This document shows positions 6,200-13,805 of a DNA stretch of 64,000 nucleotides, in pieces. The notes beneath the pieces are model-generated. The model had not been told where the DNA came from, ran no database searches, and saw only the letters and a program-made list of their open reading frames with translations. Within the stretch, counting starts at the first letter, position 1; every line of letters begins with the position of its first letter. Source of the DNA: Heterodontus francisci (lineage: Eukaryota); contig NC_090376.1 of NCBI RefSeq assembly GCF_036365525.1, positions 26,158,311-26,222,310 on the forward strand. Direction: 5' to 3'. Made by a program: the position numbers and the translations under genes.

Positions 6200-6513
6200 T
6201 TTACCCTGTTTTTCCCTCTATCTCCTTCCCCCGCCTTCACGTTGTCTCTTCAGAGTCCAGCAGACTATTGGATTTGCCAATGGTTCTCTCCCAGTCATGG
6301 AAGTGGGACCATCCCAGAATCCAGTTGGAGCGTGCAAGCCCTCTATTAAACCTACAGGAACCTTGTTGAGCGGCACCTCCGTGTTGTAGATGGCGCTGTG
6401 AGGGAGAGGCAGGGAAAATATCCACCCGATGTTACCCAGAAGTTCCTCTCCCATTGCAATGACAAACAGTGCATGAGGGTTTGGGCCGAAGGGAGGTAGC
6501 TTAAAGTGATCAG
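6200..6513. promoter_or_regulatory. Putative bidirectional housekeeping promoter and non-coding exon 1 of LIPT1
   Basis: Opposed CCAAT boxes (ATTGG 6267-6271, CCAAT 6277-6281), ZNF143-like TCCCAG cores near 6289 and 6312, YY1-like AGATGGCG at 6388-6395, raised CpG. Plus-strand donor CAG|GTGAGT at 6513/6514; candidate minus-strand donor AGG|GTAAAT at 6205/6204. Confidence 0.65.
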
Positions 6514-6611
6514 GTGAGTCAATGCTTCGGACATTCAGATTGCAGGAGCGAGTGCTCCCTATCGTCACTCATGCATTACATTTAGTTTTATCGTTAGTTT
6601 GTATTTTGCAG
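6514..6611 (+). other. 98-nt 5'UTR intron of LIPT1
   Basis: Consensus donor GTGAGT and T-rich tract ending TTTTGCAG just before the ATG. Confidence 0.75.
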
Positions 6612-6618
6612 CGACGCG

Positions 6619-7749
6619 ATGCCCTTACTGAATGGTGGATTCCGGGCAGTGTGGAGAGCGCTTTCCCCTGCTCGCTACACCACTCTGGCCGCTTTGGATG
6701 AGCCCCGGGGCGGCGGTGCCCTGCTCCTGCAGTCCGTGTCCACTGATGTTTACGAGAACCTAGCGCTGGAGGACTGGTTACATGAGTACGTGCAGCGCCA
6801 GGACCGGGAGGTGCTTCTGCTGTGGAGGAATTGCCCAGCTGTGGTGATCGGTCGCCACCAGAACCCCTGGCAGGAATGCAACCTGAAACTCATGAGGGAC
6901 CAAGGAGTCCAACTGAGCCGGAGGAGGAGCGGGGGAGGCACCGTGTACCATGACCTGGGCAACATCAACCTGACCTTCTTCACCTCCAAGAAGAGGTACG
7001 ACAGACGTGGCAACTTGGAGCTGGTTATCTCTGCCCTGAAGAAGATCCGACCCCACCTGGATATCTTGGCCACAGACAGGTACGACCTGCTGCTCAACGG
7101 TGTCTTTAAGATCTCAGGCACTGCCTCCAAGATTGGGAGGACCTCTGCTTACCACCATTGCACCTTGCTTTGCAACTCAGACAGGTCTCTGTTGTCCTCT
7201 GTGCTCCACTCTCCACACCAAGGTCTAAAAAGCAACGCTACCCCTAGTATACCTGCCACTGTGAAAAACCTCTGTGAAGAGGATCCCACTCTCACTTGTG
7301 ACATATTGATGGATGCCATTGCAGCGGAGTATGCAAGGTGCCACAGTCTCCAAAGCCAACCCAGACTCATAGACCCTAAATACAATTTGATGTTACCAGG
7401 AATTGACAAATTTACCCAGGAACTTAAAAGCTGGGACTGGATCTATGGAAGAACGCCCAAGTTCAGTATCAGCCACTCTTTCTCCGTGGACCATAATTTA
7501 TCCGGGGCAGAAGTTAAATTGAACATGTGCATCAATCGTGGCACAATTGAAAGCTGCAATATTGAAGTGTTTACTGATAGGCTACCATCTGCAATGTGTG
7601 ACCAATTAGCTTCAGACCTTATTGGCAACAGGTTTTGCCCGACTGAAACAATGGTTTTGGCAAATGCCCATTTAAGGGTTTGTCCCCAGGACAATGAGCT
7701 GCATAACAAATGGAATGCTCTTTGTGAGCAAGTTAAGGGAATTATGTAA
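6619..7749 (+). CDS. LIPT1: Lipoyltransferase 1, mitochondrial (376 aa, single coding exon)
   Basis: Intact ORF with lipoate-ligase family motifs VVIGRHQNPWQEC, RRRSGGGTVYHD, KISGTA, HHCTLL and WDWIYGRTPKF. C-terminus KWNALCEQVKGIM matches vertebrate LIPT1. Arg-containing N-terminus is presequence-like. Acceptor ttttgcag ends at 6611, 7 nt before the ATG. Confidence 0.97.
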   Translation: MPLLNGGFRAVWRALSPARYTTLAALDEPRGGGALLLQSVSTDVYENLALEDWLHEYVQRQDREVLLLWRNCPAVVIGRHQNPWQECNLKLMRDQGVQLSRRRSGGGTVYHDLGNINLTFFTSKKRYDRRGNLELVISALKKIRPHLDILATDRYDLLLNGVFKISGTASKIGRTSAYHHCTLLCNSDRSLLSSVLHSPHQGLKSNATPSIPATVKNLCEEDPTLTCDILMDAIAAEYARCHSLQSQPRLIDPKYNLMLPGIDKFTQELKSWDWIYGRTPKFSISHSFSVDHNLSGAEVKLNMCINRGTIESCNIEVFTDRLPSAMCDQLASDLIGNRFCPTETMVLANAHLRVCPQDNELHNKWNALCEQVKGIM

Positions 7750-8197
7750 TTTTTAGTTCCTGTTGATTTTTTTATGTCAATGCACCCTGACAAACTTGAA
7801 TTTAGTGCTGCTGAACCTACCAACTGGTAGCTTGAATCAAGCCAAAATACATCTAGTTTTGTTTTGTGCAACTTTTATTCAAAGATGAGTTTTATAAAAA
7901 CTTTTTTCTTATAACCTACTGTGCCACATTCATAAAAACTGCAAAAAAGGCCCAGGCAGCATGAAGTAGTTATTTTCTATAGGGAATATGGAAATATAAA
8001 GGGTCTGTATGGGGATGGGCTTGATTCAAAATAATGTAATTGTTATCCATTAGGAATATTTGAAGTCATCAGTTATATACTCAAATATTTGTGTAAAAAT
8101 ATAGTGTGCAAGTGTAATTTATTTTTATTGTAGTTTCTGGAAAGTGGTTCAAGAAGGCAGCTCACCACCACCTTCTCAAGGATAATTAAGGATGCAC

Positions 8198-8203
8198 AAT
8201 AAA
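8198..8203 (+). terminator. Candidate LIPT1 poly(A) signal inside a LINE 3' tail fragment
   Basis: First AATAAA after the LIPT1 stop; GT-rich tract at 8233-8256. Confidence 0.45.
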
Positions 8204-11329: not shown

Positions 11330-11669
11330 TTAGAGATACAGCACCAAAACAGGCCCTTCGGCCCACCGAGTCTGTGCCGACCATCAACCACCCATTGATA
11401 CTAATCCTACACTAATCCCATATTCCAACCACATCCCCACCTGTCCCTATATTCCCCTACCACCTACCTATACTAAGGACAATTTATAATTGCCAATTTA
11501 TCTATCAACCTGCAAGTCTTTGGCTGTGGGAGGAAACCGGAGCACCCGGTGAAAACCCACGCAGACACAGGGAGAACTTGCAAACTCTACACAGGCAGTA
11601 CCCAGAATTGAACCCGGGTCGCTGGAACTGTGAGGCTACGGTGCTAACCACTGCGCCACTGTGCCGCCC
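11330..11669 (-). mobile_element. V-SINE (HE1-like), full length
   Basis: Near-identical to 4580-4912. Confidence 0.92.
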
Positions 11670-12439
11670 ATCTCAATTCTATATATGCTGTGATTGTTTA
11701 CATAGTATTGTCTTGACCCGTGCTCTGATTTTCTTTTGCTGTCCAACGATAGCTGTAGGCTGACACTTTGTATTTCAGTCTAGTTACATGGCCGCATATA
11801 GAAAATTCTGTACGTAAATGCCCTCTCGCTACTCCGTGGTGCTTTTCCTCAGTTTTGTAAATCATTCAGGCCAGATCCGTTGTGGCAGGAAATAAGATGG
11901 TACAGAATGGCTGTCTGTATTTATTCCACACACTGTTTAAAAATCATTAGCAAAGTAGTTTTGTGTCAATTTCACAAAGCAAAATGCCACCAGAATGAGA
12001 TACATGGTTATGGAACTAGATTTTAGTGGGATTTAGAAAGCCAAGATACAGCTATGAGAAACTAAAAGTGCTGGAGCTGCTGACTGACCTACCATTTCAG
12101 CATTGATACAGTACAACCAAAGACATTTTTAAAAGTACACACAGGAATTGATATATTTTTGAAATGCGACCAGTGCATCCCTTTTAAAATTGAACTCAAA
12201 TTTGTGGAAACAATAATAATGTTATAAATATGTTTAGCAATCAGTTTCTTTTGACATCCAAAGTAAATTGGGATCTATAATTTCAAATTGTTATGTCTTA
12301 TTTTGTTTTTAGTGATGCAACAATACTTCACATCTCTAAGAGCTTCGAAATTTCCTGTGTGGTGTTTGTCACTTTAAAGTTAACCAGGTGTGTTTGACTG
12401 GCCAATTTTAAGATCTCTCTGTGGGTCACTGAGTATATC

Positions 12440-12680
12440 CATGTGAGTAGCTAAGACATTCAGACCAGGAAGGCCCTGGGGATTGTCCTGTTTCATACTA
12501 TGTTAACTATTCTCAGCTAGGATAGTGGTACGAGTACGACAATTTGCCTCAGTGCTTCTTGGTTAGGGATAGGAAAATTATTCGGGTTTCTACTCCTAGT
12601 CGCCATCTGGAAAATAGTGCTACAAGTTCAGATGTGGTGGATGTTGATGAAAACTAGATTAGGTTCAGTAATTCTCAATC
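12440..12680 (+). mobile_element. Old tRNA-derived SINE family (diverged; other copies near 14985, 17500, 22935, 34020, 34455, 51800)
   Basis: Shared blocks CAGACCAGGAAGG, GTTAGCTGATCTyAGC, GCCTCAGTGC and GCTGGAAAG between copies. Confidence 0.55.
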
Positions 12681-13100
12681 CAGTTCTAGCGAGAAGGGCC
12701 CACACCACAAAACTGTTCCGAACTTCTCTTAAATTCCATAGGAGGAAAGGTGTCTGAAATGGGAAATAAGATGTCTTGCTGCCTTAGTAGTGGGTGTGCA
12801 ACTGAGGTTGAGTCTGACCACTTTGTAGAGTATAACTGAGGAAACTGTAATCTGCACCTAATCATGCTATATTATAGCAGGGAGTGCTTGATGGCTAACA
12901 CTAACTAACATTCCTTTTTAAAAAAGAGAATGATCAGAAGTTGCCTCTGTATGATTCAAGACTATTGGTGCCAGGATGGAACAGCCTGGGATCTAGCTAT
13001 AAAGGCAGATAAGTTTTTTTTTAAACTTCATTTTTTTTCCCGGATCCCATATTATGCTTTTTATTTTACTTACAGAGATTGTTAAGTTAAAGACTTCAAC

Positions 13101-13805
13101 ATGTCTGAACCAATAACGCTGAATGTAGGGGGAAGGTTATACACCACTTCCCTGATGACTTTAACTCACTATCCAGAATCGATGATTGGCTCAATGTTTA
13201 GTGGAACATTGTCTACCAGCAAGGATCTGCAAGGAAACTACTTCATAGACCGAGATGGAGAAATGTTTCGATACATCCTGAATTTCCTTCGAACATCACA
13301 CTTGGACCTTCCAAATGATTTCCAAGAGCTGGATCTTCTGAGCAGAGAGGCTGATTTTTACCAGATCCAACCTCTGCTGGAGGCTTTGCAAAAGATCAAG
13401 TCCCCGGTTACTAAAATAAAAAAGAATGTAATGCTTAACATCATTCACGACTCGCAATTTCTTAATGTGGGCTCCGGTAGCATAAAAGTTGTTAATATCC
13501 GAGCATTTTCCACCTCGTGTGCCTTACTGAAGCTCCTGAATTCCAAATTCTACTATGGAGACAAGGTGTTTGCAGGTTCCAACCTGGAGAATCTGAAATT
13601 TATTTCACTAGAGTGGTTTGAAAGTAACACAAGTGGAATGCAAAGTTGGAAAAGCCTCCATGTTTCACCATCTCATCAGCAAATCAAAAATCTGGAAATG
13701 TTTGTTCAACAAGTCATAAAAATAGCAGTCGATGGTGGATTCCTTCTTCATTCCATTCCTTCTGTTTTATCCAACCCAGTGATCCTGAATTTCACTCTGT
13801 ACTGA
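13101..13805 (+). CDS. KCTD21: BTB/POZ domain-containing protein KCTD21 (234 aa, single coding exon)
   Basis: MSEPITLNVGG...YFIDRDG...FRYILNFLRTSHLDLP...EADFYQIQPL T1-type BTB domain. C-terminal [14 protein letters not shown] and QIKNLEMFVQQVIKIAVDGGF resemble KCTD21. Acceptor ends at 13075, with an in-frame TAA upstream of the ATG. Adjacent to ALG8 as in mammals. Confidence 0.93.
   Translation: MSEPITLNVGGRLYTTSLMTLTHYPESMIGSMFSGTLSTSKDLQGNYFIDRDGEMFRYILNFLRTSHLDLPNDFQELDLLSREADFYQIQPLLEALQKIKSPVTKIKKNVMLNIIHDSQFLNVGSGSIKVVNIRAFSTSCALLKLLNSKFYYGDKVFAGSNLENLKFISLEWFESNTSGMQSWKSLHVSPSHQQIKNLEMFVQQVIKIAVDGGFLLHSIPSVLSNPVILNFTLY

Follow-up and report, generated by a model that had tools for sequence, protein, structure and literature searches.

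The plus strand of a 64,000-nt stretch of the Heterodontus francisci genome (contig NC_090376.1, positions 26,158,311 to 26,222,310; hereafter the window, on the chromosome designated C6) carries two unrelated coding sequences in the same orientation, LIPT1 and a KCTD21-like gene, downstream of a consensus splice donor. This arrangement raises the question of whether one non-coding first exon feeds both genes and, if so, how they came to stand together. We consider it reasonably probable that LIPT1 lies in its native place, and that the KCTD21-like gene is a cartilaginous-fish duplicate that likely uses the LIPT1 promoter and was likely born at an inversion breakpoint.

The donor, CAG|GTGAGT, ends at 6513; the pattern MAG|GTRAGT occurs three times on the plus strand of the window. 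Four runs (X1, X2, X5 and X15) were examined as contigs only, recorded as 'RNA?' or '?', with X1 and X2 derived from one sample. Contigs X1 rec1 (6402–6513) and X5 rec25 (6377–6513) both terminate precisely at the donor, which places a non-coding first exon at 6377–6513 (+). Its 5' end is approximate, as contigs starting at 6377–6402 cannot reveal transcription start sites. Four short upstream open reading frames (uORFs) lie in this exon, every one closing within it. In Scyliorhinus canicula, the LIPT1 transcript model X1 has a 5' extension that matches stretch 6428–6484 (equally good shuffles, 0/200); this is an automatic gene model, as are those behind all cross-species 5' exon matches used here. 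The acceptor AG of LIPT1 closes a 98-nt intron at 6611 (6514–6611, +), which is skipped in X1 and X2 contigs and kept in a low-depth X5 contig. A single-exon open reading frame (ORF) of 376 amino acids follows (6619–7749, +), within a terminal exon running from 6612 to at least 8171. Its product matches the Pfam family LplA-B_cat (E 6e-53), the proteins that it matches best come from sharks and rays and bear the name LIPT1 (78–88%), and it is single-copy in this genome (1 match out of 13 candidates). Judged on this catalytic domain, these names and this copy number, the gene is the LIPT1 orthologue.

For the KCTD21-like gene, the acceptor AG ends at 13075 and the ATG of the ORF stands 25 nt on, at 13101. 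This single-exon ORF encodes 234 amino acids (13101–13805, +; relatives have about 243) with BTB_2 and KCTD11_21_C domains (Pfam), and the X1 and X2 contigs span it with 0 differences. The donor, both acceptors and both ORFs were all listed in the initial annotation and are confirmed here; its description of each acceptor as a few nucleotides before the ATG suits LIPT1 (6611 to 6619) and not the KCTD21-like gene.

Evidence that the KCTD21-like gene also takes up exon 1 comes from bookkeeping of contig depths and overhangs, with 31-letter words assumed. Contig X1 rec1 ends at 6513, which is the branch point. For X1 rec2, the LIPT1 contig, a 6513>6612 joint predicts an overhang of 27 letters, and 27 are observed. 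For X1 rec8, the KCTD21-like contig (13073–14224), inclusion of a putative non-coding internal exon of 75 nt with AG/GT ends at 12313–12387 (+) predicts an overhang of 102 letters (30+75-3=102), exactly the length observed. The depth predicted for the bin that takes in this exon is 19.0–19.8 in X1, and the observed value is 20.1. For bin 6434–6722, the predicted depth is 40.96 with the first 28 letters of rec8 placed on exon 1 and 33.8 without them, against 41 observed; the interval that would fit is about 1 in 100 of the plausible range. Three parameter-free predictions (the overhangs of 27 and 102 and the exon-1 bin depth) thus agree with the X1 contigs. A direct 6513>13076 joint was rejected for the main X1 contig because it would give a depth of 115 at 6446–6463, where 41.1 is observed. 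We consider it likely that KCTD21-like transcripts take LIPT1 exon 1 in this shark, by the route 6513>12313–12387>13076. In the leader modelled on this route, every uORF closes upstream of the main ATG. The proposal of the initial annotation that one non-coding exon feeds two genes probably stands, on indirect contig evidence, with 6513>12313 as the joint that fits; the 6513>13076 junction on which it relied does not, the 75-nt exon having been overlooked.

A further exon was tried immediately before 13076 in rec8, at 12927–13004 with a GC donor, and was excluded by the rec8 piece starting at 13073. As an observation in its own right, this 78-nt candidate has two branch-point-like motifs upstream and suits the depth of bin 12792–13080, though not the rec8 joint.

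Several points weigh against shared use of exon 1. The 6513>12313 joint is deduced from bookkeeping rather than directly displayed, with 166 joints unlisted, and its short side of 30 letters falls below the 31-letter bridging bar. The evidence comes from one run of one sample, recorded as 'RNA?'; the remainder in X2 would suit a junction of depth 13 and a retained intron of depth 2.3 equally well, and coverage of the KCTD21-like gene in X5 and X15 is too thin. Bin 12792–13080 has a depth of 22.7 in X1, of which rec8 accounts for 2.05. Across species, exon 1 is kept in catshark LIPT1 and no joint from exon 1 to the KCTD21-like gene was seen; the sole cross-species 5' evidence for the latter, the Heptranchias X1 model, uses an exon near 10.8 kb instead.

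That exon lies in a conserved non-repeat element (10730–10841, +), flanked by repeats that occupy about 8.6–10.7 kb and 11.3–11.7 kb between the two ORFs. The element ends in a strong donor, AAG|GTAAGG at 10841, and likely serves the KCTD21-like gene as another promoter and first exon, as the initial annotation had suggested in its alternative of a promoter near 10.8 kb. Stretch 10730–10822 matches the 5' extension of the N-terminally extended Heptranchias model XP_067841480.1, which includes this exon and continues into the 13076 acceptor (equally good shuffles, 0/200). Two SBS-like motifs lie within the element, at 10784 (−) and 10793–10811 (+), as found in a consensus-based motif scan; motifs related to SBS are among those described in PMC3082894.

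These features, together with the low-depth contigs X2 rec22 and X5 rec28 that span the element, are what an account without real sharing would build on: LIPT1 and the KCTD21-like gene would be independent neighbours, the latter starting at 10.8 kb, and the 6513 joints minor read-through. The depth of the exon-1 contig, 41, also falls short of that of LIPT1 and the KCTD21-like gene together (46+74), contig depth being a poor measure. The main X1 contig argues otherwise, as its prefix cannot come from 10.8 kb: placing the first letters of rec8 there requires a depth of at least 7.19, and 5.28 is observed. Further, the rec8 piece begins at 13073, whereas the 10841 donor would give 13074, and in Heterodontus francisci the 10841>13076 leader contains two out-of-frame upstream ATGs whose reading frames overlap the main ATG. 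We regard independent neighbours as improbable. The KCTD21-like gene is probably served by two working promoters, one borrowed from LIPT1 and its own at 10.8 kb.

The LIPT1 promoter is placed at 6280–6400 (+), a promoter-like region with one ZNF143/SBS-like core at 6312, found in the same scan. The adjoining stretch 6401–6900 is CpG-rich, its larger part falling within the LIPT1 ORF. The minus strand has a donor-like site at 6205–6208, some 170 nt before exon 1; it may belong to the first exon of a gene arranged head-to-head, presumably TSGA10, in which case the promoter would be bidirectional. A unique GC-rich stretch at 2400–3230 (63% GC, CpG observed/expected 0.56, GC-box-like runs) lies 3 kb upstream of exon 1. 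Its 2.8–3.2 kb part was weighed as a promoter and set aside, composition (observed/expected 0.56) being the only basis.

The initial annotation took the KCTD21-like gene for the USP35-linked KCTD21, an identification that the rest of C6 contradicts. The chromosome carries two KCTD21-type genes, the window gene at 26.171 Mb (+) and a gene for a 260-amino-acid protein at 71.633 Mb (−). It is the latter, which shares 99% identity with the representative of the white-shark cluster, that has the USP35 linkage and the closest kinship to tetrapod KCTD21, and this conserved KCTD21 stands beside MITD1 and USP35 at 71.63–71.68 Mb. Identity to tetrapod KCTD21 is 67% for the 260-amino-acid type of chimaera, compared with 50–51% for the window protein, which is 47–53% identical to KCTD21 proteins. 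In a 43-row tree, KCTD21-like proteins form one clade (100/100) in which 14/14 rows are cartilaginous fish, lying within KCTD21 and apart from KCTD11. Between chimaera and houndshark, KCTD21-like identity is 60%, as against 94% for the 260-amino-acid copy. A stretch of 13–15 amino acids present in both KCTD21 and KCTD11 is gone from KCTD21-like, a derived deletion, and the Heterodontus francisci protein has two further in-frame deletions (9 amino acids in total) on which the X1 and X2 contigs agree. By these comparisons the window gene is a fast-evolving KCTD21 paralogue of cartilaginous fish, distinct from the USP35-linked gene, and its role as a Cul3 adaptor is predicted from its family.

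The protein recorded in the database as the product of the window gene (P0121) has 207 amino acids; it begins at Met28 and lacks the first part of the BTB domain. Both the relatives and the X1 contig point to the 234-amino-acid start instead. An AG at about 13178, within the ORF, could act as an internal acceptor. In shark annotations, the label 'KCTD21-like' spans three genes: the window paralogue, true KCTD21 and KCTD11.

The order of genes along C6 points to how the paralogue reached its place. Around the window, all on the plus strand, lie UNC50 (25.35 Mb), LIPT1 (26.165 Mb), the KCTD21-like gene (26.171 Mb), ALG8 (26.18–26.20 Mb) and NDUFC2 (26.20 Mb). The distal locus comprises MITD1 (+, 71.599–71.609 Mb), KCTD21 (−, 71.633 Mb), a CpG island at 71.668 Mb and a USP35/38-type gene (+, 71.682 Mb) whose family matches both USP35 and USP38 and which we call USP35 by position. 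Chicken chromosome 1 has UNC50-MGAT4A-KIAA1211L-TSGA10-LIPT1-MITD1-MRPL30 at 133–134 Mb and USP35-KCTD21-ALG8-NDUFC2 at 194–195 Mb, as far as the gene orders given in PMC10976558 extend. Relative to chicken, the shark orders LIPT1-KCTD21like-ALG8 and MITD1-KCTD21-USP35 have the LIPT1|MITD1 and KCTD21|ALG8 joints exchanged, and each swapped joint carries a KCTD21 copy, the two in opposite orientations and 45.46 Mb apart. The two breaks in synteny are reciprocal and lie on the same chromosome, each with one member of an inverted pair of duplicates. LIPT1 is unmoved relative to its upstream block, with UNC50 still upstream of it (0.8 Mb), as in the chicken LIPT1 block.

The initial annotation had instead placed LIPT1 within intron 1 of the KCTD21 of the USP35 block. 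An intron-less LIPT1 copy moved into that intron would account for ALG8 and NDUFC2 standing downstream of the KCTD21-like gene and for LIPT1 not being beside MITD1. We find such a move barely credible, as USP35, with the conserved KCTD21, is 45 Mb off and UNC50 remains upstream of LIPT1. Also against it stands an exon encoding a coiled coil at 26.072 Mb of C6 (−), 86 kb upstream of the window and with a 48% paralogue on chromosome C1; this exon would suit TSGA10, and the Atlas did not name the gene. A whole-genome search for a second LIPT1 beside MITD1, a check that the initial annotation had proposed, found none (1 match/13 candidates). The direction that it had assumed is likely reversed: the nested LIPT1 would be the owner of the promoter and the KCTD21-like gene the borrower.

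Some features of the surroundings bear on these blocks. ALG8 begins in the window with a first coding exon at 16936–17024 (+), recognised by position and reading rather than by family match, followed by later exons at 20679–38348. NDUFC2 exons lie at 45843–51467 (+), with a CpG island at 45601–46100. The first coding exon of MITD1 (L028:9170–9330, 71.599 Mb of C6) has an acceptor before it, which suggests that the shark gene includes a non-coding exon further upstream. C1 carries paralogues both of the C6 USP35 and of the upstream coiled-coil exon, as expected for sister chromosomes from genome doubling, and these may help to polarise the rearrangement. A search of 125 ORFs (hand-cut from 790) against Pfam gave just weak coiled-coil and MIT matches and did not name TSGA10. 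Our searches of this genome did not locate MRPL30 or REV1, which is no proof of their absence. In humans, LIPT1 and MRPL30 produce a read-through transcript, which our search did not confirm.

The pairing of LIPT1 with the KCTD21-like gene extends across cartilaginous fish. Their accessions lie no more than 2 numbers apart in 14/17 cartilaginous fish and no more than 15 apart in 16/17, the wider gaps being those of Cetorhinus (7) and Hemitrygon (15). Rhincodon is the non-adjacent exception, its LIPT1 record lying on a 5.9-kb contig; Mobula birostris, Rhinoraja, Leucoraja and Pristiophorus, with one accession only, were left out. As a control, the 260-amino-acid KCTD21 is about 375–870 numbers away in the 10 species with a same-release RefSeq accession listed. 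None of six bony fish (coelacanth, gar, paddlefish and three sturgeons) has the two adjacent, the accessions being at least 192 apart; the gar contigs differ in length, and a sterlet gene model joins KCTD21 to ALG8. Adjacency, which the initial annotation had allowed might be general in non-mammalian vertebrates, is thus general in cartilaginous fish (16/17) and absent from the six bony fish checked and from chicken. Two species depart from a simple pair: elephant shark (Callorhinchus) carries two KCTD21-like copies (P0134/P0203), and Scyliorhinus torazame accessions (P0457/P0124) suggest two consecutive LIPT1/KCTD21-like pairs, either a tandem pair duplication or an assembly artefact.

The age of the duplication bears on the direction of the swap, and here an origin in the cartilaginous-fish stem meets difficulties. 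The best tree sets KCTD21-like outside shark plus bony KCTD21 (support 76/49; 762/1000 bootstraps). Of 32 sites that distinguish shark from bony KCTD21, KCTD21-like agrees with bony at 10, shark at 4 and neither at 18. No non-coding homology was found between the two breakpoints, and adjacency across species was judged by accession order, a proxy. Grouping of KCTD21-like with shark KCTD21 appeared in 71/1000 bootstraps, and a shark-only duplication was not rejected (AU p 0.266). No cyclostome occurs among the best 120 of 281 LIPT1 matches or the best 120 of 200 KCTD21 matches. Bony vertebrates show one copy and the un-inverted order, yet they are the sister group of cartilaginous fish. As far as the sequence comparisons go, KCTD21 was duplicated shortly before or shortly after the shark and bony lineages parted.

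The history could accordingly run the other way, with the same sharing of exon 1: the arrangement seen in sharks, including both inverted copies of KCTD21, would be ancestral for jawed vertebrates, and the bony lineage would have inverted the segment and lost the LIPT1-side copy. The best tree and the site counts, which date the split of the copies at or before the shark/bony split, favour this course, inverted paralogues would account for both breakpoints, and both blocks are on one chromosome in chicken, coelacanth and sturgeons. It needs three events (duplication, inversion and loss) rather than one, and the KCTD21-like branch is long (0.56) and may be drawn to the outgroup, with support of 76/49 and half-gene trees (3 long rows excluded) that gave no resolved placement. 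A chimera test on bony KCTD21 gave no signal, the 10 shared sites splitting into 6 N-terminal and 4 C-terminal, and no bony-fish row occurs in the KCTD21-like clade among 45/45 matches or the best 120 of 200. We hold this reversed history to be possible and clearly the less likely course. Were the shark order ancestral, an exon-sharing LIPT1/KCTD21-like unit would have been kept for more than 400 million years in all cartilaginous fish, and an inversion between inverted KCTD21 copies in the lineage leading to humans would have dissolved it and lost a fourth KCASH-type Cul3 adaptor, a sequence of events that we think rather unlikely.

Under the cartilaginous-fish origin that we prefer, one staggered-break inversion in the stem of the group would have copied the single coding exon of KCTD21 to both ends. 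The copy by USP35 would have retained its promoter and sequence, while that by LIPT1 would have persisted by borrowing a first exon, its sequence diverging. Today, transcripts starting at about 6.38 kb would splice 6513>6612 and end past LIPT1, or alternatively, as the contigs suggest, skip the LIPT1 exon by 6513>12313–12387>13076 and yield a BTB protein; the promoter near 10.8 kb probably feeds the KCTD21-like gene as well.

Genes that share a first exon seldom show how they came to do so. In this shark, a duplicated gene beside a break in synteny appears to draw on the promoter of a housekeeping gene, and both its sister copy and the exchanged neighbours still stand 45 Mb away. As a marker, the swap cleanly separates cartilaginous from bony vertebrates, the unnamed KCTD21 paralogue has been kept from chimaeras to rays, and shark 'KCTD21-like' labels, which mix three genes, call for caution. 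No general principle is changed; the interest lies in the breakpoint duplicate and its clade-wide conservation more than in exon sharing. We know of no functional link between LIPT1 and KCTD21-like. A literature search, with subscription journals and supplements outside its scope, returned no paper on the pair or the swap, only gene lists.

First-exon sharing itself is a described class. The human pair PHOSPHO2/KLHL23 joins an enzyme with a BTB protein, as LIPT1/KCTD21-like does. It is among the 24 human same-strand pairs that share a promoter or 5' exon according to PMC2568002, along with CPNE1/RBM12 and ITGA1/PELO; the main text of that paper contains 0 mentions of LIPT1 or MRPL30. As described there for the CPNE1/RBM12 type, the shark pair has unrelated coding sequences, the upstream gene being short and the read-through gene longer, and the two would have a single non-coding first exon in common, with splicing and polyadenylation deciding between them. 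Unlike that type, its downstream gene is a lineage-specific duplicate with a probable second promoter of its own, and the likely founding rearrangement is still visible. The ChAT/VAChT locus, in the account given in PMC7524744, likewise has a single-exon ORF (VAChT) in intron 1 of another gene (ChAT) and a common non-coding exon; ChAT and VAChT, however, serve one pathway at a pan-animal locus, whereas in the shark the nested gene likely owns the promoter. Human KCTD21 (KCASH2), which binds Cul3 in the findings reported in PMC10856315, resembles the shark paralogue in its BTB_2 and KCTD11_21_C domains, single coding exon and KCTD21 clade; the paralogue differs in forming a fast-evolving separate clade, in its 47–53% identity and lost stretch of 13–15 amino acids, and in not being head-to-head with USP35. 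For the breakpoints, the closest parallel is in Drosophila, where 17/29 inversions have inverted duplications at both breakpoints by the count given in PMC1885836. The shark case is alike in that a single gene has inverted copies at a reciprocal pair of breaks in synteny along the same chromosome, and unlike in that it concerns a vertebrate, predates the chimaera/shark split and retains both copies as intact genes. To the described class, the LIPT1/KCTD21-like pair probably adds a member with an unusually visible origin.

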